From IMG/VR virus record IMGVR_UViG_2698536401_000006: DNA of 21,234 bases, one strand, 5' to 3'. Position 1 is the stretch's first letter; each line of letters opens with the position of its first letter. The position numbers and the translations under genes are program-made. The stretch is from a virus (Duplodnaviria > Heunggongvirae > Uroviricota > Caudoviricetes). Positions 1,850 to 21,234 of the stretch are shown here, piece after piece. A model generated the notes under the pieces. That model was not told the origin of the DNA. It saw only the letters and a program-made list of their open reading frames with translations, and ran no database searches.

Positions 1850-2120
1850 GATGTTACCGTAGTATGTGAGTATCCATCGAATAGACACCAAGCAAAAAAG
1901 CTCCCGAAGGAGCCTTCATTTTCACTTTTTTAAATCCAACGACAGACGGCTGGCATTTAAGTATTGTGAAATATTATCAAATGTAATCATCATTGATTTA
2001 CAAAAGATACATTTTGCCCCGAAAGGATTCATGTCAGAAACATCAAAAGATGATGTTCTATACTGGGAACCATGACAACACGGGCATCTAAAGTGAATAT
2101 GGTTTGTAATATTGTCTACC

Positions 2121-2333
2121 TCAAAGCGCCACTACATGAACAGCGGCAGGACCTTTAGGTCCGTTCTCAATACCAAATTCAACTTCCTGATTCTCAGTTA
2201 ATGTTTTGAAATCGTTGCTCTGAATTGCTGAGAAATGGACAAACACATCTTTGCTGCCATCTTTCGGCGTGATGAAACCAAAACCTTTTTCAGGGTTAAA
2301 CCATTTCACTAAACCAGTCATTTTGTTAGACAT
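2121..2333 (-). CDS. cspI: Cold shock protein CspI (CspA family)
   Basis: 70 aa with the signature [37 protein letters not shown] (RNP1/RNP2 motifs KGFGFI and VFVHF). Confidence 0.9.
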
Positions 2334-2695
2334 AATTATTACCTTTTGAAGAAATTAGCCCTTGGGCAGAATGGTCCGAAAAAAAATATCAGAGAGAAAA
2401 ACCAACAAGGAAATCTCAAGAGGTACAAATAATAAAATTATAACAATGACTGCTTCAGATAAATTTGTAACAAACCAGAACACCATTAACGCATGATTAA
2501 CCACCCATAGCAAGGATTACTTTTGTAAAGAAAAACACAGCAATGAAAGAATAGCTTTATTTATTAATAAAACGTGTCATTCTGATTAAGACCTTTTATC
2601 TTACCCTTAAGATTTCAGGAATTTTGGCTCATGGAAGAGTCCTTTTTATTTAAATTTTACATTCCGCGATGTAAATGTTCCGATTTAATATTACC

Positions 2696-4726: not shown

Positions 4727-5004
4727 ATTGTGGTGCTTTTTGTGGGAGTCATCCACTTACGCACTTTGTTTTGCCATGCCAGCAGTTAGCTTCTGCTGTA
4801 AAACTATTCATGCAGCAAACCTGCACTTCACCACAATGGTTAGCATACTTTTCCTGATTAAGATTTTGCCAAATATGCTAGCCATTGTTTCATGTATTGG
4901 ACCTCCTTACTTTTTATTAAAGAGATCCAATATTCACTACTCTGTCCGTATCTCTACTCAGGCATCAGCCTTCTTCGTTATCGTATACAGACGAGCGATG
5001 AATT

Positions 5005-5220
5005 TTAATCAGTAATGATGACATTTGCTGCTGCAGGACCTTTAGCACCACTCTCTATAGAGAAGGTAACCTTTTGACCTTCAAATAAGGTTCGATAATT
5101 ATCATTCTGAATCGCAGAAAAATGCACAAACACATCTTTACTACCATCAACAGGAGAAATAAAGCCGAAACCTTTATCAGCGTTAAACCATTTTACTAAA
5201 CCAGTCATTTTATTTGACAT
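5005..5220 (-). CDS. cspB: Cold shock protein CspB
   Basis: 71 aa: [67 protein letters not shown]..., CspA-family signature. Confidence 0.9.
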
Positions 5221-5520
5221 TCTACATTCCTTAACTTGAGCCTTTCGGCATAAATGGTTTGCATAACAGAAACGACTTCGTACTTAATTGGAGAGACTCA
5301 AAGAAGGAATAAGTGAATAACACCTGAAATGAGAACTGCTTTAGTAAACTACTTCGTATATCGTCTGTTCTTCAAACCGACGCAATCATTAACGCATAGT
5401 TGAACATATGAAGCAATGTTTATTTTAGACATCCAGCCATCTTCAACCCCATCAAAAAACTATAGCTTTCTTCAGGAACGTGTGTATAGTGCGCCAAGTT
5501 ATCAGTATTAAGGAATTTTT

Positions 5521-8714: not shown

Positions 8715-8784
8715 TTAAGTGCGGGTGCGTTGAGGATGCCTGCCACATCAGAGGTGGCGAGGGATTTCTCCCCCGCCGGGTCTC

Positions 8785-8940
8785 TTACTCCTCAGGTTCG
8801 TAAGCTGTGAAGACAGCGACCTCCGTCTGGCCGGTTCGGATTCGTACCTCGCAGAGGTCTTTCCTCGTTACCAGTGCCGTCACTATGACGGTTAAACAGA
8901 TGACGATCAGGGCGATTAACATCGCCTTTTGCTGCTTCAT
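8785..8940 (-). CDS. hokD: Hok-family membrane toxin HokD (RelF)
   Basis: Manual translation gives MKQQKAMLIALIVICLTVIVTALVTRKDLCEVRIRTGQTEVAVFTAYEPEE (51 aa), matching remembered HokD. SD AGGAGAAG upstream. Absent from the ORF track because of its size. Confidence 0.85.
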   Translation of the reverse strand: MKQQKAMLIALIVICLTVIVTALVTRKDLCEVRIRTGQTEVAVFTAYEPEE

Positions 8941-10839: not shown

Positions 10840-12153
10840 TCAATCTTTTTTATCGGGATCAGGCTTCTTTTTAGGTAACTTCGGGGGCTTAACTTGCTGA
10901 TGACTTTGCGTTCGGCGCGTAAGCCAGGGATGGTCAGCTTTAGGTTTAACATAGTATTTTGAGCGTAAATCAATACGGGCATTATCCACTCGTTCATGGA
11001 CACTCTTTTCATCATCCAGTGGTATAGGCTCCGGGCCATCAACATACTTTTCCCAGCCCAGCGCTTTCCCGTCATACAGAACGTTAATTTCACCGTCAAA
11101 GTTCTCGCATACAGTAACAACCGAATGCCTAAGTCGATATCCCCGGCCCTCACTGCGTACCTGAAACGCACTGCTTTTGTACTGGAAAGTGAGATTTTTA
11201 GACAGAACGCGCTTCGCCTGTAGGCTGAAGATATAACCCAGTTCCTCTTCAGAATGGTGCACATCAAGATGAGCATTATCAGTAGTACGAGGCGACGTAG
11301 CGAACCGGTTGTTATAGGCTTCAATAAAGGTCGGCAACCATGCATTTGCTGTTTCAATATCACTGATATTCTGAAGCCGCATTTCTTTGACCAGCCTGTC
11401 CTGTAGTGTCTGATTGGCGCGCTCTACCCGCCCTTTTGCCTGCGGGCTGTTGGCATGGATTGGCTCGATGCCCAGTGTCTTTATCGCACGAGTGAACTGG
11501 GTCAGCTCACCTTCCCGCTCTGGGTTATTTACCCTGAATATACTGTGTCTATCAGAGTAGAGAGCGAGCGGTACGCCATGATCATTAAGGTAACCCCGGA
11601 GGGTTTCCATGTAAGCCCGGGTTGTTTCAGCAGGCACAAAACGCAACGCCATCAACGCACTGGTGGCATCATCAATGAAAACGATCAGTGTACATCTGGG
11701 GCCTCGATTTTCAAACCAGTCATGAGGTGAGCCATCAATCTGGATCAGTTCACCGTAAGATGGTCGTCGCATGCGGCGTTGATATATACGGGCAATTTTA
11801 CGACGGCGTTCACGCCATAACCCCTCTTCTATCATCCACTTTCTGAGAGTTTCAACGGATAAAGATAAACCGTGTATCTCGCGCAATTTTTCGCACGCAA
11901 ACGTAGGTCCAAAATCAGCGTAACGGCCTTTGAGGAGTGAAATTACTGTTGCTCTGAATTCAGTAGAAAAGGAATTATTAGGACGCTTTCCACGTCGGTG
12001 GGAAACCAGACCAGAAGGCCCTTCATTTCTATACCGTTGCACCAGACGTTTAACCTGCCGAATAGAAATGCCAATGCGTGCCGCAGCTTGTTCCTGAATA
12101 ATCTGAAGTCGGTGGAGTTCCTTATGACTCATCGTAACAGTCTCTTTGATCAT
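10840..12153 (-). CDS. DDE transposase with N-terminal HTH and rve (integrase-core) domain, IS481-like in architecture
   Basis: 437 aa with an N-terminal HTH region (ISIRQVKRLVQRY) and D/D/E-type core segments (IQIDGSPHDWF, LIVFIDDATS, LYSDRHSIF, ERANQTLQD). IS family is not established and IS ends were not identified. Confidence 0.75.
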   Translation of the reverse strand: MIKETVTMSHKELHRLQIIQEQAAARIGISIRQVKRLVQRYRNEGPSGLVSHRRGKRPNNSFSTEFRATVISLLKGRYADFGPTFACEKLREIHGLSLSVETLRKWMIEEGLWRERRRKIARIYQRRMRRPSYGELIQIDGSPHDWFENRGPRCTLIVFIDDATSALMALRFVPAETTRAYMETLRGYLNDHGVPLALYSDRHSIFRVNNPEREGELTQFTRAIKTLGIEPIHANSPQAKGRVERANQTLQDRLVKEMRLQNISDIETANAWLPTFIEAYNNRFATSPRTTDNAHLDVHHSEEELGYIFSLQAKRVLSKNLTFQYKSSAFQVRSEGRGYRLRHSVVTVCENFDGEINVLYDGKALGWEKYVDGPEPIPLDDEKSVHERVDNARIDLRSKYYVKPKADHPWLTRRTQSHQQVKPPKLPKKKPDPDKKD

Positions 12154-12370
12154 GAAAAATCCCCCAGAGAATTGTCTGGGGACATTTTAGAATGGTTCAA
12201 AGGGGACATTACAGCTTGGTGTTAACAATAGCCTGCTTCTCCGTGCCTTTCGGCACGTAAGAGGCTAACCTACATGTGTCTAGCATGAAATTGGCCTCAG
12301 ATTAATGTTAAGCGTCTTGCAGGACGCGTAATGTTAACTGGGGCTTTTCTCTATCTGCCGTTGGTGTCCA

Positions 12371-12402
12371 TGCCCGAGGCAGATAGCCTCAAGCACCCGC
12401 CG
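12371..12402 (+). repeat. Left copy of a 32 bp imperfect direct repeat flanking the low-GC cassette
   Basis: TGCCCGAGGCAGATAGCCTCAAGCACCCGCCG; 27 of 32 nt match the copy at 14390-14421, with an identical 14-nt core CCTCAAGCACCCGC. Confidence 0.6.
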
Positions 12403-12636: not shown

Positions 12637-13665
12637 TTACGCCTTAATAGGGTTAATCACATTTCCGCTATCCGTACCATAGTATTTTTTTGTAGTCATG
12701 CCTTGTTTATAATAATCATTTAACAGTTTGAGAAAGTTTCTTCCTTGCCTCTCATCTTCTATGACTAATTTACCATGCTCATTGGTCTTAAACTCTTCGT
12801 TCTGAAACATTTTTAGCACATCATTCATAGCTTGAACATCATTCTTTTCCAGAACCGTATGGTTACCTTTCTCAGCGATATGAGTGAGAATTTTTCTCAG
12901 TGATGGCTTATGAAGAATAGCTTGTTCAATAACATCTAAACCTTCAATAAGATCAAGTTCTTTAATTGTATTTAATGTTTTTTGTGCAGCTTCTGTAAAC
13001 TCAACCTCCAAGCCTACAATAGCCTCAAAACTTTTCTTATGAAATACATAAAATTGATCTTTTATATAAATACAATCGATTTTGTCATCAAAATTGACTG
13101 CGCTGCCATCAAATGATCTTAACTCTTTATCTGTTTTATCAAACAAAGCGAATACGCGCTGAGTCATATTTTGTGGTTCATTTGTTGTGACTTTCCCCCT
13201 GCTGATTTTTCGGAAAGAATAAGTGACGTCAGCCCCCTTTTGGACTTTAATACAATAGGCCCACAAATCATTCTGAACCTCAGCCAGAGAGGTAAGTACA
13301 ACTGGTTTATCATTCTTTATATCGTTATTAATAACTTTTGAAAACGATATCGCGTTATTCATAGCATAGGCATAAATCTTATTATCAATATCATCATCAA
13401 TAACAGTATACTTTTTCATCACAATATCATCTTTCGAAGCATGAGAAATAATCTGGTTTGATAAAGTATACTTAAAAAATTTAGCAATATCTGGAGCGAT
13501 TGGAGCTTTAATGATTTTAAAATCGAATTTATCAACAACTCTTGCGGTTCTACTCATACCCGCTTTAAGATGTCTAGTAATGAAATACAACGATATTTTC
13601 GCCGCATCATCATCCTTAAGTTGCTCAGCATACTCTAATAATTCTTCAAGCTTTAACATTTTCAT
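12637..13665 (-). CDS. Hypothetical 342 aa soluble protein, second gene of the low-GC cassette (candidate defence effector/sensor)
   Basis: AT-rich ORF with Lys/Asn/Ile-biased codon usage unlike the surrounding prophage. Translationally coupled (ATGA overlap) to the upstream membrane protein gene. No motif I can name. Confidence 0.75.
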   Translation of the reverse strand: MKMLKLEELLEYAEQLKDDDAAKISLYFITRHLKAGMSRTARVVDKFDFKIIKAPIAPDIAKFFKYTLSNQIISHASKDDIVMKKYTVIDDDIDNKIYAYAMNNAISFSKVINNDIKNDKPVVLTSLAEVQNDLWAYCIKVQKGADVTYSFRKISRGKVTTNEPQNMTQRVFALFDKTDKELRSFDGSAVNFDDKIDCIYIKDQFYVFHKKSFEAIVGLEVEFTEAAQKTLNTIKELDLIEGLDVIEQAILHKPSLRKILTHIAEKGNHTVLEKNDVQAMNDVLKMFQNEEFKTNEHGKLVIEDERQGRNFLKLLNDYYKQGMTTKKYYGTDSGNVINPIKA

Positions 13666-14276
13666 TCCTTATGGGATTCAGCATAAAAAAGTTTTGGGCC
13701 CACGTCCTCAACATCAAGAAGATCATCTTCCTCCAAATACTTTGATTTAGTCAAAACCATACCAGTGCGTTTTTTGTCGCTTTCTAAATCCAAATATGTA
13801 ACTTGATATAAAGTATAATTAATACTTATTGTAGGATTTATAAGTATCATGCTTGAATTAATATATATTAAAGCCGTTACCGTTAACAATATTGCTATAG
13901 GTATAACATTAGTTAAAGTGGATAGATCCTGAAATACAAACGGAATTATATATGTAAAAAGATAGCTTATTGATTCATTGTTTTTATTTTCAATATCTAT
14001 AACTCTTACAGTTCTACCACTAGTGGCGCATCGACGTTTTATATTTTTTAAAAAAATTGTTAATCCTACAATACCAAATAATGATAATACACCAATGACA
14101 CTGACCGCGCCAAAGTATTTAAAGAAAATAGTTAATGATTCAACACTTATACCTTTCCAATTTAAATAGCTTCTATAAGTATACAATTGCACAAAACACA
14201 TGATAAAGAATAGGGGAAGGTATGACACTATAAATAGCGAAACTCTAGCACCTAAATGTAGTTTATTTACTCTCAT
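13662..14276 (-). CDS. 4-TM membrane protein, first gene of the low-GC cassette
   Basis: 204 aa with four hydrophobic segments (about 12-31, 48-74, 103-115, 123-146) and an acidic C-terminal tail. AT-rich. Its stop overlaps the start of the downstream gene. Confidence 0.7.
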   Translation of the reverse strand: MRVNKLHLGARVSLFIVSYLPLFFIMCFVQLYTYRSYLNWKGISVESLTIFFKYFGAVSVIGVLSLFGIVGLTIFLKNIKRRCATSGRTVRVIDIENKNNESISYLFTYIIPFVFQDLSTLTNVIPIAILLTVTALIYINSSMILINPTISINYTLYQVTYLDLESDKKRTGMVLTKSKYLEEDDLLDVEDVGPKLFYAESHKE

Positions 14277-14484: not shown

Positions 14485-15171
14485 TCACTCCTTCTCTTCT
14501 TTATCGTAGTGGAGTTGACCAATTTTGATAAGAGGGCGTCCCTGAGATTTGCGGTGTAGATTGGTATCGCGCAGAGAATACACACAGCCACAATATTCCT
14601 GCTGATAGAATTTTTCGCGCTTGCTGATTTCAATCATGCGGGACGAGCCGCCCTGCTTGCGCCAGTTATAATCCCAGTACACCATGCCCGGATAATGCGC
14701 GACGGCTCGCCGCCCACAGTCGTTAACCTGCTGCATATTTTTCCAGCGTGAAATGCCCAGTGAACTGCTGATCACACTGAAACCATTTTCAGCAGCGTAC
14801 AGCGCTGTCCGCTCAAAACGCATGTCAAAACACATGGTACAACGGATCCCCCTCTCGGGCTCCCATTCCATTCCTTTGGCACGTTCAAACCAGTTGTCTG
14901 TGTCGTAATCAGCATCAATAAATGGCACGCCGTGTTGTTCAGCAAAGCGAATATTCTCATCCTTACGAATTAAATACTCTTTCTGAGGATGAATGTTCGG
15001 GTTGTAGAAAAAGATGGTATAGTCGATTCCCGAGGCCTGAAGCGCCTCCATCACTTCACCGGAACATGGAGCACAGCAAGAGTGCAGTAGTAGTTTGTTT
15101 GCCCCGTTTGGGAGCTCCAATTTAGGCCGTTTGAAATCAGCAATAGTCATAAATATTTTTATTGGGGTCAT
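14485..15171 (-). CDS. QueH-like protein (DUF208, epoxyqueuosine reductase family)
   Basis: 228 aa containing [14 protein letters not shown] near the N-terminus, the Cys motif I associate with QueH/DUF208, plus further conserved Cys (CTMC, CGC). Start could be the internal Met at 15150. Confidence 0.65.
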
Positions 15172-17254: not shown

Positions 17255-17465
17255 TGTTCAACCGCCCCGCCCGCTTCGTCTTACGATATTCGTCATAAAC
17301 CTTGGGATCATACAGAAGCTCGCCGCCAGATGCCTCCTGTAGACGCATCGCGCGACCTTCAGGAACCAGCTCTTGCCATTGAGAAACAGCAGATGGGTCA
17401 ACGCCAGCAGCTTTCGCTACTTTGGCTTTCGTACCGTAAAAATTAATTACGTCTGATTTAAACAT
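17238..17465 (-). CDS. dicC: Cro-like repressor DicC
   Basis: The C-terminal ...LVPEGRAMRLQEASGGELLYDPKVYDEYRKTKRAGRLNNENHS matches remembered DicC. Probable start is the ATG at 17465 (MFKSDVINFYG) with SD GGAGG; the ORF track extends to 17492. Confidence 0.8.
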   Translation of the reverse strand: MFKSDVINFYGTKAKVAKAAGVDPSAVSQWQELVPEGRAMRLQEASGGELLYDPKVYDEYRKTKRAGRLNNENHS

Positions 17466-17542
17466 CGCACCTCCAATATTGAGTTTTCTCAATGCTAATC
17501 ACTCAAGGAATCTCAAGTCAAGGGTTATTAAGATATCTAAAT
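17466..17542. promoter_or_regulatory. dicC/dicA divergent promoter-operator region with palindrome TTGAGTTTTCTCAA
   Basis: 77 bp between divergent cro-like and cI-like genes. Perfect palindrome at 17479-17492; the related motif recurs at 18016-18027 and, inverted, at 18052-18063. Confidence 0.65.
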
Positions 17543-17950
17543 ATGAACGAGAAAACTTTAGGTCAACGCATTAGAGAAAGACGTAAGCAGGTAGGCTTAA
17601 GTCAAAACGGTTTAAGCAAAGCTGCTGGCGTATCTGGCTCATCAATTTCATTATGGGAAAGTGACCATACAGCCCCGCGCGGGCAAAATTTGCATCGCCT
17701 CGCCGAGGTATTGCAATGTTCACCAACCTGGATACTGTTTGGCGACGAGGACAAAACACCAGCTCCCCCTGTTTCACTCGATAGTGCCTTAGACTTATCG
17801 GAAGATGAGTTAGAGATGCTGCGTTTGTATCGCGCACTTCCTAAATCAGAGCAACAAGCACAACTCAGCGAACTCCGCGCCCGCGTTGAGAATTTTAATC
17901 GCCTGTTCACCGAGCTATTAGAGGCTCGCAAACGCAACAAGCATCAATAA
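17543..17950 (+). CDS. dicA: cI-like HTH repressor DicA
   Basis: 135 aa from the ATG at 17543 (MNEKTLGQRIRERRKQVGLSQNGLSKAAGVSGSSISLWE...LQCSPTWILFGDEDK...), matching remembered DicA in length and motifs. The ORF track extends to 17492. Confidence 0.85.
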   Translation: MNEKTLGQRIRERRKQVGLSQNGLSKAAGVSGSSISLWESDHTAPRGQNLHRLAEVLQCSPTWILFGDEDKTPAPPVSLDSALDLSEDELEMLRLYRALPKSEQQAQLSELRARVENFNRLFTELLEARKRNKHQ

Positions 17951-18013
17951 TCATCCCTTCACAAAATTTTAAAGCCTTACATTTCAATGTATTGGCTTTA
18001 TCTTGCGCCAATA

Positions 18014-18066
18014 CTTGAGTTTTCTCATCAAAAAGCCTTGACGAAAAATAATGAGAAAACTAAATT
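18014..18066 (+). promoter_or_regulatory. PdicB-like promoter (TTGACG-N17-TAAATT) flanked by inverted DicA-operator motifs
   Basis: -35 TTGACG at 18038-18043 and -10 TAAATT at 18061-18066. Operator half-sites GAGTTTTCTCA (18016-18027) and TGAGAAAACTAA (18052-18063) bracket the promoter. Confidence 0.65.
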
Positions 18067-18142
18067 ACCTCCATCAACACACCGCACGGTGTTCTCAGCA
18101 AACAGTTCCGCTACCCCGGCGTTAAGGGGAAATGAGGTCAGC

Positions 18143-18295
18143 ATGGATACTATCGATCTTGGCAACAGCGAATCTCTGGTATGTGGCGTGTTCCCCAACC
18201 AGGACGGTACGTTCACCGCGATGACATATACCAAAAGCAAAACGTTTAAAACCGAATCTGGCGCGCGTTGCTGGTTAGCCAGAAACACTGACTGA
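18143..18295 (+). CDS. ydfA: YdfA-like small protein
   Basis: 50 aa from the ATG at 18143: MDTIDLGNSESLVCGVFPNQDGTFTAMTYTKSKTFKTESGARCWLARNTD, matching remembered YdfA. Confidence 0.75.
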   Translation: MDTIDLGNSESLVCGVFPNQDGTFTAMTYTKSKTFKTESGARCWLARNTD

Positions 18296-18672
18296 TGAGG
18301 CTGACGATGGAATTTAAAGATTTACCGTCTGATGTACAGAAAACAGCAGCTCATACATTGCATTCTGTGCTGCGAGAAATCGGGAAAGATATTGCAAGCG
18401 AGCCAGCAAAAGATCTGGCCCGGAAAATCAAGACCGCTTTCGTTGAGCTTTATAATGTTGGCACTGACTCTGAAACTGTCGAGACCAAGACCGTAAGTTC
18501 ACCAATATTCTCACTTGAGCCAGGCGTATTATCAGGTGAAATATGCACCGAGATTTCCAGCGAACTGCTTCCGGTAATACGAGAAGCAATTTGCCGTCGC
18601 GGTTTGGATGGAAGTTACGATCATGACGTCCTGCAAGTTCTCAGGACAATGGTGACTTCACTGGGGATTTGA
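18295..18672 (+). CDS. YdfB/YdfC-like protein as a single continuous 125 aa ORF
   Basis: Starts MRLTMEFKDLPSDVQK... overlapping the ydfA stop (TGATG). K-12 annotates two short genes (ydfB, ydfC) here, as I recall. Confidence 0.6.
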   Translation: MRLTMEFKDLPSDVQKTAAHTLHSVLREIGKDIASEPAKDLARKIKTAFVELYNVGTDSETVETKTVSSPIFSLEPGVLSGEICTEISSELLPVIREAICRRGLDGSYDHDVLQVLRTMVTSLGI

Positions 18673-18753
18673 TCCCTGCGTCCTCTAACCCGAGTTGTCA
18701 GGTTGACCATACGCTTAAGTGACAACCCCGCTGCAACGCCCTCTGTTATCAAT

Positions 18754-18811
18754 TTTCTGGTGACGTTTGGCGGTATCAGTTTTACTCCGTGACTGCTCTG
18801 CCGCCGTTTTT
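18754..18811 (+). ncRNA. dicF: DicF small regulatory RNA (ftsZ-targeting sRNA) with intrinsic terminator
   Basis: TTTCTGGTGACGTTTGGCGGTATCAGTTTTACTCCGTGACTGCTCTGCCGCCGTTTTT matches remembered DicF, including the terminal hairpin and U-run. Located between ydfB/C and dicB. Confidence 0.8.
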
Positions 18812-18980
18812 AAAGTGAATTTTGTGATGCGGTGAATGCGGCTAAGCGCACGCGGAACAGTTAAAACCAAAAACAGTGTTATGGGTAGATTCTCTGTATC
18901 CGGCGTTAATTGTTAACTGGTTAACGTCACCTGGAGGCACCAGGCACTGCATCACAAAATTCATTGTTGAGGACGCGATA

Positions 18981-19169
18981 ATGAAAACGTTATTACCAAA
19001 CGTTAATACGTCTGAAGGTTGTTTTGAAATTGGTGTCACTATCAGTAACCCTGTATTTACTGAAGATGCCATTAACAAGAGAAAACAAGAACGGGAGCTA
19101 TTAAATAAAATATGCATTGTTTCAATGCTGGCTCGTTTACGTCTGATGCCAAAAGGATGTGCACAATGA
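18981..19169 (+). CDS. dicB: Cell-division inhibitor DicB
   Basis: 62 aa from the ATG at 18981: MKTLLPNVNTSEGCFEIGVTISNPVFTEDAINKRKQERELLNKICIVSMLARLRLMPKGCAQ. Confidence 0.85.
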   Translation: MKTLLPNVNTSEGCFEIGVTISNPVFTEDAINKRKQERELLNKICIVSMLARLRLMPKGCAQ

Positions 19170-19357
19170 ATTCAGCATTTGCGCTTGTTCTGACAGTTTT
19201 TCTTGTTTCCGGAGAGCCAGTTGATATTGCAGTCAGTGTTCACAGGACAATGCAGGAGTGTATGACTGCAGCAACCGAACAGAAAATTCCCGGTAACTGT
19301 TACCCGGTCGATAAAGTTATTCACCAGGATAATATCGAAATCCCGGCAGGTCTTTAA
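19166..19357 (+). CDS. ydfD: YdfD-like small membrane (lysis-type) protein
   Basis: 63 aa from the ATG at 19166 (MNSAFALVLTVFLVSGEPVDIAVSVHRTMQECMTAATEQKIPGNCYPVDKVIHQDNIEIPAGL), with an N-terminal hydrophobic segment. ATGA overlap with dicB. Confidence 0.75.
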   Translation: MNSAFALVLTVFLVSGEPVDIAVSVHRTMQECMTAATEQKIPGNCYPVDKVIHQDNIEIPAGL

Positions 19358-19450
19358 AACAGTTCCGTAATAAATATCCGGTTTCATTCTTATATGCCAG
19401 CAATGGCAGGGATTTGTTCATCCTTAAATCTGTCATGAGGTTAAAACAAA

Positions 19451-21234
19451 ATGAGTAAAGTCTTTATTTGCGCCGCTATTCCTGACGAACTGGCAACAAG
19501 GGAAGAAGGCGCTGTGGCTGTAGCCACAGCCATTGAAGCTGGCGACGAACGCCGTGCTCGAGCAAAATTTCACTGGCAGTTCCTGGAACATTATCCGGCT
19601 GCTCAGGACTGCGCTTATAAATTTATTGTCTGCGAGGATAAACCTGGCATACCCCGCCCTGCCCTCGATTCATGGGATGCTGAATATATGCAGGAAAACC
19701 GCTGGGATGAGGAGTCTGCTTCTTTTGTCCCGGTTGAGACTGAATCCGATCCGATGAACGTCACTTTTGACAAGCTGGCCCCTGAAGTACAGAACGCTGT
19801 CATGGTTAAGTTCGACACATGTGAAAACATCACCGTTGATATGGTTATTAGCGCACAGGAATTGTTGCAGGAAGACATGGCAACATTCGACGGACATATC
19901 GTTGAAGCGTTGATGAAAATGCCAGAAGTTAACGCCATGTATCCGGAGCTTAAGTTGCACGCCATTGGGTGGGTTAAGCATAAATGTATTCCTGGTGCTA
20001 AATGGCCCGAAATTCAGGCAGAGATGCGCATCTGGAAAAAACGTCGCGAAGGTGAACGCAAGGAAACCGGAAAATACACGTCTGTTGTTGATCTCGCCCG
20101 CGCCAGAGCCAATCAACAGTACACTGAAAATTCAACAGGAAAAATCAGCCCGGTCATTGCTGCCATTCATCGCGAATACAAGCAGACATGGAAAACACTG
20201 GATGACGAACTGGCCTACGCTCTCTGGCCTGGTGATGTGGATGCCGGAAACATTGACGGCAGCATCCATCGCTGGGCAAAAAAAGAAGTTATCGACAACG
20301 ACCGCGAAGACTGGAAGCGTATCTCGGCATCAATGCGCAAACAGCCTGATGCCCTTCGCTACGACCGCCAGACTATTTTTGGCCTTGTCCGTGAGCGTCC
20401 GATCGACATTCACAAAGATCCCATAGCACTGAACAAATATATCTGCGAATACCTGACGACAAAGGGCGTGTTTGAGAGTGAAGAAACAGACCTGGGCACT
20501 GTTGATGTTCTCCAGTCATCAGAAACACAAACTGATGCAGTGGAAACTGAGGTATCTGATATCCCAAAAAATGAAACCGCGCCGGAAGCTGAACCATCTG
20601 TAGAGCGTGAGGGGCCGTTCTATTTCCTCTTCGCAGATAAGGACGGAGAAAAATACGGTCGCGCAAACAAACTTTCTGGTCTGGATAAGGCACTGGCTGC
20701 TGGCGCCACTGAAATCACAAAAGAAGAATATTTTGCCCGAAAAAATGGCACATACACGGGCTTACCGCAAAATGTAGATACCGCTGAAGATTCAGAACAA
20801 CCAGAGCCGATAAAAGTTACCGCTGACGAAGTAAACAAAATTATGCAGGCAGCCAATATCAGCCAGCCTGACGCCGATAAGTTGCTTGCTGCATCACGTG
20901 GTGAATTTGTTGAAGGGATTAGTGACCCGAATGATCCGAAATGGGTTAAGGGGATCCAGACCCGCGATTCTGTGAACCAGAACCAGCATGAATCGGAACG
21001 GAACTACCAAAAAGCGGAACAAAACAGCACAAATGCGTTACAAAACGAGCCAGAAACGAAACAGCCTGAACCAGTGGCGCAACAGGAAGTGGAAAAAGTC
21101 TGCACCGCCTGCGGTCAGACCGGCGGCGGCAACTGCCCTGATTGTGGCGCGGTGATGGGCGACGCAACATACCAAGAAACATTCGATGAAGAGTATCAGG
21201 TTGAAGTTCAGGAAGATGATCCGGAGGAAATGGA
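19451..21234 (+). CDS. recE: RecE-like exonuclease VIII, N-terminal and middle regions; partial, continues beyond the window
   Basis: Open frame from the ATG at 19451 (MSKVFICAAIPDELATREEG...) with no stop before the window end, so it is absent from the ORF track. The distal part (KLLAASRGEFVEGISDPNDPKWVKGIQTRDSVNQNQHESERNYQKAEQNS...CTACGQTGGGNCPDCGAVMGDATYQETF) matches remembered Rac RecE. Confidence 0.8.
   Translation, partial: MSKVFICAAIPDELATREEGAVAVATAIEAGDERRARAKFHWQFLEHYPAAQDCAYKFIVCEDKPGIPRPALDSWDAEYMQENRWDEESASFVPVETESDPMNVTFDKLAPEVQNAVMVKFDTCENITVDMVISAQELLQEDMATFDGHIVEALMKMPEVNAMYPELKLHAIGWVKHKCIPGAKWPEIQAEMRIWKKRREGERKETGKYTSVVDLARARANQQYTENSTGKISPVIAAIHREYKQTWKTLDDELAYALWPGDVDAGNIDGSIHRWAKKEVIDNDREDWKRISASMRKQPDALRYDRQTIFGLVRERPIDIHKDPIALNKYICEYLTTKGVFESEETDLGTVDVLQSSETQTDAVETEVSDIPKNETAPEAEPSVEREGPFYFLFADKDGEKYGRANKLSGLDKALAAGATEITKEEYFARKNGTYTGLPQNVDTAEDSEQPEPIKVTADEVNKIMQAANISQPDADKLLAASRGEFVEGISDPNDPKWVKGIQTRDSVNQNQHESERNYQKAEQNSTNALQNEPETKQPEPVAQQEVEKVCTACGQTGGGNCPDCGAVMGDATYQETFDEEYQVEVQEDDPEEM

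Follow-up and report, generated by a model that had tools for sequence, protein, structure and literature searches.

A widespread "recE-like" gene of Qin-type Escherichia coli prophages codes for a mosaic protein with a predicted DexA-like 3'-to-5' exonuclease domain

The closest described relatives of the gene reported here are recE (b1350), which codes for exonuclease VIII in the Rac prophage of Escherichia coli K-12, the ydfE pseudogene (b1577) of the K-12 Qin prophage, and exonucleases of the DexA type. In full-length RecE, the region equivalent to the N-terminal scaffold described below enhances linear-linear recombination (PMC11611040), and a survey of the prophages of E. coli O157 Sakai described seven of them as 'ExoVIII-type' instead of lambda Red (PMC2669165). 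The 3'-5' DNA exonuclease activity of DexA from phage T4 has been characterised biochemically (PMC12153337), and EcD, its homolog from E. coli, cleaves DNA containing 5-hydroxymethylcytosine (5hmC), not unmodified double-stranded DNA (dsDNA), and protects against T4 (PMC12153337, Kang et al.). We analysed a stretch of 21,234 nucleotides (nt) of tailed-phage DNA (IMG/VR virus record IMGVR_UViG_2698536401_000006; hereafter the window), the last 1784 nt of which form the 5' part of a long open reading frame (ORF). An initial annotation, made from the letters of the window, had taken this ORF for an apparently intact recE-like exonuclease gene and had read this as a sign that the prophage keeps a functional RecET-type recombination module. 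Judged by its domain matches, the 823-amino-acid (aa) product is instead a mosaic in which an N-terminus of the YdfE type and a middle resembling RecE are joined to a 3'-5' exonuclease head related to DexA, and we consider it the probable explanation that this Qin-type prophage protein serves as a 3'-to-5' exonuclease in early lytic development, independently of an annealase.

The frame begins with an ATG at position 19451 of the plus strand, 11 nt downstream of a GAGG Shine-Dalgarno-like site, and remains open for 594 codons through the last base of the window at 21234, as the initial annotation had stated. By simple arithmetic, the chance of finding no stop in 594 random codons is ~(61/64)^594, or ~4e-13. 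Because the window stops at codon 594, the intactness and the downstream sequence of the gene in its true source are inferred from genomes that match the window at 99.9-100%, and the nuclease domain was read from the genome L001. Over its last 1935 nt, the window matches E. coli FDAARGOS_1277 at 100%, strain A1 matches the whole window at 99.9% as a single collinear piece, and the window part of the gene is identical to L001:12152-13935, the two prophages differing by insertions or deletions upstream. In both FDAARGOS_1277 and A1 the full gene has 2472 nt and 823 codons, with no frameshift or stop soon after the end of the window, which bears out the claim of an uninterrupted gene for the closest genomes and, by inference, for the source. 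The 229 further codons include the DEDDh nuclease domain (aa 636-823). The window part of the product is identical to RefSeq WP_085004590.1, PHROG 2082 ('exonuclease', 823 positions) matches the protein end to end (positions 1-822), and the Prokaryotic Genome Annotation Pipeline (PGAP) labels the gene "exonuclease" or "3'-5' exonuclease". It is a very common E. coli prophage gene that has been annotated before, and its biological role is only predicted.

The assignment of the C-terminal part is based on a strong profile match and on the conservation of the catalytic residues. The family PF16473 (Rv2179c-like 3'-5' exoribonuclease domain) matches aa 642-813 with 226.5 bits (E=2.3e-67; cut-off 27 bits), covering model positions 2-177 of 177, and a weak RNase_T hit lies in the same C-terminal ~180 residues. 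The sole solved structure related by sequence is that of T4 DexA (8kel, E=1.6e-6), in which D7, E9, D119, H186 and D191 align with the predicted catalytic set D646, E648, D746, H796 and D801; these five residues are invariant in six diverged relatives with a DEDDh head. A nuclease domain is therefore present downstream, where the initial annotation had proposed to look for one, but it is of the DEDDh type (PF16473) and not the PD-(D/E)XK domain of RecE.

Similarity to Rac RecE is found in the middle of the protein, as had been noticed. Residues 262-625 align with RecE 278-591 at 39% identity (BLASTP, E=9e-62), and close similarity is restricted to ~150 residues, gene nt 1425-1867 being 78% identical to recE nt 1365-1765 at the nucleotide level, with parts of aa 481-600 ~85-90% identical to RecE; within the window, residues 476-594 match the RecE middle. 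This middle region of RecE (~456-591), with its CxxC...CxxC motif and acidic tail, is thus present, and the motif is kept with two substitutions: CTACGQTGGGNCPDCG at aa 551-566 (C551, C554, C562 and C565) corresponds to CNACGQTGGDNCPDCG in RecE. The alignment to RecE stops short of its catalytic part, since neither BLASTP nor phmmer detected in the protein any similarity to RecE 595-866. The RecE nuclease family PF12684 (PD-(D/E)XK, RecE ~564/606-866) had no hit in the 823-aa protein, whereas the positive controls P0249, P0260 and P0345, all relatives of the protein, were hit. The RecE N-terminal family PF06630 'Exonuc_VIII' had no hit in it either, and the relatives P0257 and P0345 carry this domain. 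With 282.7 bits, the NCBIfam RecE equivalog NF007259 remained far below its cut-off of 1269, and its alignment was limited to model positions 271-602 of 877.

As a separate observation, PF06630, described in Pfam as 'Enterobacterial exodeoxyribonuclease VIII', models ~200 non-catalytic N-terminal residues of RecE and also occurs on proteins with a DEDDh exonuclease head (e.g. P0257). A hit to this family is therefore no sign of a RecE-type nuclease.

The genomic context was then compared between the window and the genomes that continue beyond its end. The gene order is DicA-like repressor, ydfA-like gene, DicF, dicB, ydfD, exonuclease gene, xis and int, next to rspB. In FDAARGOS_1277 and A1, xis follows 72 nt after the exonuclease stop and is itself followed by int and by chromosomal rspB, the rspB side being the Qin attachment region of K-12. 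The prophage is thus a Qin-type lambdoid prophage, in whose early-left operon (dicA-ydfA-dicF-dicB-ydfD) the gene takes the last place, followed by xis-int. The arrangement dicB-ydfD-exonuclease-xis-int is shared by seven loci at three attachment sites (FDAARGOS_1277, A1, HannyBb, phage vB_EcoS-813R8, O104:H4 2009EL-2050, FEA3 and EC31). HannyBb is a deposited complete phage genome, with a protein 99.5% identical; the prophages of O104:H4 2009EL-2050 and FEA3 are located at ompW and potC, respectively, and the exonuclease protein of EC31 has a different N-terminus. At none of the seven loci is the gene followed by recT or another annealase gene, xis and int being found instead, and no RecT/Erf/Bet-like gene was detected among the annotated genes or the scanned ORFs of the window. 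As the gene lacks a dedicated annealase, a two-component recombinase of the RecET or Red type is excluded.

These data leave practically no chance that the gene is an intact RecE (exonuclease VIII) ortholog, a 5'-3' dsDNA exonuclease forming a working RecET module with a RecT encoded downstream. Such a reading could draw on the RecE-like middle, the partial NCBIfam RecE hit, the operon position, which is that of recE in Rac, the label 'ExoVIII-type' given to such prophage systems in surveys (PMC2669165), and the existence elsewhere of a relative (P0249) in which a YdfE scaffold with a PDDEXK head is paired with RecT. It is contradicted by the lack of any similarity to RecE 595-866, by the absence of both PF12684 and PF06630, by a score of 283 against the required 1269 bits, by the DEDDh C-terminus, and by the presence of xis 72 nt after the stop, with recT in 0/7 contexts. 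For the matching genomes the RecE/RecET reading is refuted, and with it the functional RecET-type module and the downstream recT that the initial annotation had led one to expect.

Relatives of the protein carry one of three different heads on a common type of N-terminal scaffold. A search of the 594-aa window product against 1.84 billion representatives (E<=0.001) returned 239 relatives, so the family is narrow. Among 52 long relatives, analysed by local phmmer and Pfam, the N-termini are either YdfE-type or Rac-type (PF06630), and the heads are DEDDh in 6, PDDEXK (PF12684) in 12 and neither of these in 34, many of the latter having 260-430 unassigned C-terminal residues. The relative P0249 consists of YdfE_N, YdfE_C and a PDDEXK head, and the stop codon of its gene overlaps the start of a RecT-family gene (PF03837, E=2e-36), which is assigned by the Pfam profile, its BLASTP comparison with K-12 RecT being insignificant. 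RecT thus follows the one PDDEXK-headed relative examined (1 of 1) and the DEDDh head at 0/7 loci. The architecture imagined in the initial annotation, a RecE-type head with RecT, therefore does exist, at another locus.

A third head of ~280 aa (P0252 class; L009:5001-7226) is found on the same YdfE scaffold. It belongs to no Pfam family, and in its sequence the conserved motif TSINxEYMxMRATExFGPxGxGWG precedes a long coiled coil; in L009 the next gene is a Sipho_Gp157 gene, and then an integrase gene. This head is also fused in Pectobacterium phage ZF40 (2744-3586); Pseudomonas F116-like and Vibrio phages have matches to 59-80% of its length, which are annotated as 'exonuclease' or 'hypothetical'. 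The motif, which we had presumed to be of the Rad52/Sak type, found no support as such: a profile search against the PDB sequences was negative for a Rad52/Sak-type annealase, and a confident AlphaFold2 (AF2) model of the head, compared with the PDB by Foldseek, retrieved no Rad52, Redbeta, Sak or Erf structure, the best E value being 0.13, to unrelated folds.

We put forward tentatively, and with some doubt, a broader proposal, according to which the YdfE/RecE N-terminal region is a reusable scaffold with interchangeable DNA-processing heads (PDDEXK, DexA-like DEDDh and the third head), and the DEDDh version, long filed as ExoVIII-type, does a distinct early-lytic task. If true, the version present in most E. 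coli genomes would have been misfiled for two decades as an 'ExoVIII-type recombination function', and candidate tasks would be annealase-independent end processing or the countering of host defences that sense 3' DNA ends.

The first 256 residues of the protein are identical (256/256) to the translated K-12 ydfE pseudogene, in agreement with the initial annotation. In the structure model, both aa 1-100 (alpha+beta) and aa 105-205 (helical) form confident domains; the YdfE_N and YdfE_C families were present only in precomputed annotations, the local copy of Pfam giving 0 hits for the 594-aa window product. Fold relatives of the N-terminal and middle modules were looked for, and no informative one was found. 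The RecE-like part also contains acidic disordered linkers, and the four-cysteine motif, for which the model confidence is only ~60, is putatively metal-binding.

The ratio of nonsynonymous to synonymous substitution rates (dN/dS) was 0.09-0.19 in the modelled folded domains, with 0.10-0.16 in the wider segment aa 388-470, compared to ~0.86 in the predicted disordered linker. The folded domains are thus under purifying selection, and together with the invariant catalytic residues this indicates that the protein is probably functional. Stop-free ORFs of 823 codons were found at 99.5%, 92.5% and 86.9% nucleotide identity, the 99.5% copy being that of HannyBb. It is accordingly very improbable that the gene is a degenerating relic, without function, of a recombination gene of a defective prophage. 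K-12 Qin is indeed defective, its copy of the gene is a pseudogene, and the prophage of the window has an ISNCY remnant, but full-length ORFs are kept across copies up to 13% apart in nucleotide sequence, dN/dS in the folded domains is 0.1-0.2, the catalytic residues are invariant, one copy resides in a complete phage genome and 3537 genomes have a near full-length copy.

In K-12 Qin, the ydfE pseudogene abuts an IS2E remnant, which is followed by the insD7 and intQ pseudogenes. An alignment with the intact locus shows identity up to gene nt 767 (window 20217) and again from int nt 122 onwards; between these points, 2184 base pairs (bp) are replaced in K-12 by the 706-bp IS2E, and the lesion is therefore an IS2-associated deletion and not a simple insertion. 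The initial annotation, which had described the K-12 gene as cut by IS2, was right about the truncation of ydfE at IS2E, whereas the loss of sequence at this site makes the event a deletion. A copy covering at least 80% of the 2472 nt was found in 3537 of 5426 complete E. coli genomes (~65%), with a median of 2 and a maximum of 10 places per genome, and strains with six or seven places have full-length copies at ~94% identity. The truncated form seen in K-12, with query nt 1-767 joined to IS2, was listed for K-12-like and laboratory strains. As ~65% of the complete genomes hold a near full-length copy, the intactness of the gene is unremarkable; the K-12 truncation is the exception and the intact copy the rule. 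Of the initial interpretation as a whole, the ORF, the ydfE and RecE matches, the K-12 truncation and the intactness hold, and the RecE orthology and the RecET module do not.

In the explanation that we favour, the protein would be a Mg2+-dependent 3'-to-5' exonuclease, most likely active on DNA as DexA is, that would be synthesised probably only once the DicA-type repressor is lifted, i.e. in early lytic development. In K-12, a promoter upstream of dicB reportedly drives the transcription of dicB together with ydfD and ydfE, and DicA represses its genes (bioRxiv 10.1101/2024.09.21.614188). The exonuclease would trim 3' DNA ends, and the N-terminal scaffold with its cysteine motif may tether or oligomerise the protein, as the equivalent region of RecE may do. 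The gene occupies the position of lambda exo/bet and Rac recE/recT, yet its product would act without a dedicated annealase. Several points speak against this explanation. Family membership and synteny are the basis for the predicted substrate (DNA or RNA), polarity and timing, and the family PF16473 is named after an exoribonuclease. Co-transcription and repression at this locus are extrapolated from K-12. The nuclease domain lies outside the window, so that its presence in the source is deduced from related genomes, none of which matches the whole window at 100%. The tethering role is a conjecture, since the fold search gave nothing informative for the N-terminal and middle modules, and what a temperate phage would gain from a 3'-5' exonuclease without an annealase is not obvious.

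The name of the family would suit a 3'-5' exoribonuclease that acts on RNA at prophage induction, either in the turnover of small RNAs or of transcripts from host or phage, or in the degradation of nucleotide-based immune signals. We regard this as unlikely, because sequence searches lead to a single solved structure, that of the DNA exonuclease DexA, the scaffold is common to RecE, a DNA enzyme, and to a RecT-paired relative, and the gene is located in the DNA recombination/excision part of the operon.

The existence of EcD raises another explanation, in which the protein is a prophage anti-phage nuclease of the 'HREX' type that, like EcD, digests incoming 5hmC (T-even) DNA and spares that of the host. 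EcD is a DexA homolog that is 5hmC-specific and T4-protective, and the A1 ortholog of the Qin protein, WP_240776490.1, is included in Table S3 of Escherichia DexA homologues in the same study (PMC12153337). The same prophage has other defence or toxin cargo (a Kiwa-like pair, relBE and hok/sok), and dicB of the same operon is reported to protect against phage (bioRxiv 10.1101/708461). EcD or a near-identical variant was recovered by a scan with the forward primer as a standalone protein of 189 aa with A78, W132 and E145 as published, the scan with the reverse primer giving one chance hit. This EcD-like variant and the Qin domain share only 39.5% identity, and they differ at 3/3 signature positions, A78, W132 and E145 of EcD corresponding to D718, Y766 and K779 (K779/A780); as the alignment is gapped near DexA D169, the position equivalent to this residue is less certain. 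The aspartate involved in DexA tetramerisation (D90; Ala in EcD) is kept as D718, also in six of the six relatives, among which Y766 and K779 vary. Judged by this alignment, the Qin protein lacks the published 5hmC-specific signature of EcD. In addition, the defence model leaves the 640-aa RecE-like scaffold unaccounted for, and the gene is part of a repressor-controlled early operon and has no promoter-like site of its own: none was found on the plus strand in the 93-nt gap before 19451, and a promoter and terminator scan of 17300-19700 gave nothing above chance. Constitutive defence of the lysogen is therefore not favoured, and we judge the defence explanation improbable.

Two further observations were made in this comparison. 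Standalone homologs of the C-terminal domain of ~180 aa, all starting with MIDLET, had been considered as candidates for EcD and turned out to be internal-start or partial versions of the Qin gene. A standalone 189-aa DexA-like gene that fits the EcD primers except for one 3'-end base, and whose product has A78, W132 and E145 like EcD, is present on L015, L020, L030, L031, L033 and L036; since all six copies (6/6) are on contigs classified as viral, EcD may itself be prophage- or phage-borne.

The features of the gene, of its product and of the operon are listed in Table 1.

Table 1. Features of the exonuclease gene and of its operon (window positions)
Feature	Position	Strand	Remarks
DicA-like helix-turn-helix (HTH) repressor, head of early-left operon	17543..17950	+	PF01381 HTH_3, E=2e-15
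DicF small RNA, 5' of dicB as in K-12 Qin	18755..18806	+	Rfam RF00039, 72.5 bits (gathering threshold 48)
dicB, cell-division inhibitor	18981..19169	+	PF05358, E=1e-39
ydfD, lysis protein (DUF1482), directly 5' of exonuclease gene	19166..19357	+	PF07358, E=4e-26
Prophage 'exonuclease' gene, 5' part	19451..21234	+	First 1784 nt, codons 1-594 of 823; 72% of gene
N-terminal scaffold, aa 1-260, Pfam YdfE_N / YdfE_C (PF27430/PF27432)	19451..20230	+	Precomputed annotations
K-12 lesion position	20217..20218	+	Rest of gene, xis and first 121 nt of int replaced in K-12
Helical domain, aa 261-344	20231..20482	+	~25% identity to RecE 278-360; AF2 predicted local distance difference test (pLDDT) ~88-91; dN/dS 0.18-0.19
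Acidic disordered linker, aa 345-387	20483..20611	+	pLDDT <50; dN/dS 0.85-0.87, near neutral
Small beta-hairpin/helix domain, aa 388-432	20612..20746	+	pLDDT ~90
Block closely common with Rac recE (gene nt 1425-1867, aa 476-622)	starts 20875..21234	+	Runs 83 nt past window
Four-cysteine motif C551-x2-C554-x7-C562-x2-C565, putative zinc ribbon	21101..21145	+	Conserved in RecE as C517..C531

Other cargo of the prophage was recorded as well. A Kiwa-like pair, with no counterpart at this place in K-12 Qin, is formed by a 204-aa ORF (13662-14276, minus strand) in the KwaA position, with no Pfam hit, and by a 342-aa KwaB-like protein encoded after it (12637-13665, minus strand; PF16162, E=2e-16). 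A sok antitoxin RNA (12227-12398, minus strand; Rfam RF01794, 104 bits) has a truncated ISNCY-family transposase gene (11109-12152, minus strand) as its neighbour and represents a second hok/sok-type locus besides hokD at 8784-8939. Thermoregulator 5' leaders of the cspA type (RF01766) precede cspB and cspI, at 4989-5381 (minus strand, 158.8 bits) and 2094-2479 (minus strand, 112.8 bits), respectively. The replication/immunity region contains a gene for a QueH-like epoxyqueuosine reductase (14485-15171, minus strand), an unusual cargo there that is missing from K-12 Qin. Between 15348 and 17950, an O-like replication gene, a YdaT-family gene, a DUF977 gene and a Cro/CI-type pair are kept, whereas K-12 Qin retains over the same region only dicC/dicA, ydfX and ydfW. 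As it keeps genes of this region that are lost in K-12, the prophage of the window is in a less degenerate state than its K-12 counterpart.

The result is mainly a correction, in that a "recE-like" ORF beside xis and int in E. coli prophages does not amount to a RecET module. This matters for the mining of recombineering enzymes and for judging which recombination system a prophage has of its own. The O157 Sakai survey made the same assumption about RecE as the initial annotation; it is the label that was compared here, the Sakai genes themselves being outside the comparison. The gene is among the commonest prophage genes of E. coli, with up to 10 places per genome, and combines a clear catalytic domain with a predicted function. 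A comparison of proteins with each of the three heads could offer a route to the role of their common scaffold.

Among the known systems, Rv2179c of Mycobacterium tuberculosis, the founder of PF16473, belongs to the same Pfam family. This small, standalone protein of the chromosome has been described as an exoribonuclease, whereas the Qin protein is a fusion encoded in a prophage recombination/excision operon. T4 DexA (exonuclease A; 8kel/8ken) belongs to the same DEDDh fold family, with 5/5 catalytic residues kept, but its identity to the Qin domain is 24-34%, depending on the alignment. DexA is a standalone protein of 227 aa from a virulent phage with hydroxymethylcytosine (hmC) DNA, whereas the Qin domain belongs to a temperate phage, is joined to a scaffold of 635 aa, lacks the extra loops of DexA and has Y766 and K779/A780 in place of the 5hmC-contacting W152 and D169. 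EcD (GenBank HAK9828821.1) is likewise an E. coli-borne exonuclease of the DexA family, and the Qin ortholog has been counted with it among the 'bacterial DexA homologues' (PMC12153337); however, EcD is standalone, whereas the Qin protein has 823 aa and other residues at the positions of A78, W132 and E145. K-12 YdfE is a 5' fragment of the same gene, identical over its first 256 residues, from which codons 257-823 are gone, as are the neighbouring xis and the first part of int. Rac RecE shares with the Qin protein the position in the lambdoid early-left operon, a large size (866 vs 823 aa) with a long non-catalytic N-terminal part, the CxxC-x7-CxxC motif and acidic tail of the common block (aa 476-622 of the Qin protein, 456-588 of RecE), and a weaker similarity over aa 262-475. 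It differs in that its first ~260 aa are of the PF06630 type and not of the YdfE type, in that recT and not xis directly follows its gene, and in its head, which is a PD-(D/E)XK 5'-3' exonuclease (PF12684) where that of the Qin protein is of the DEDDh 3'-5' type (PF16473), so that the two proteins would carry heads of opposite polarity.

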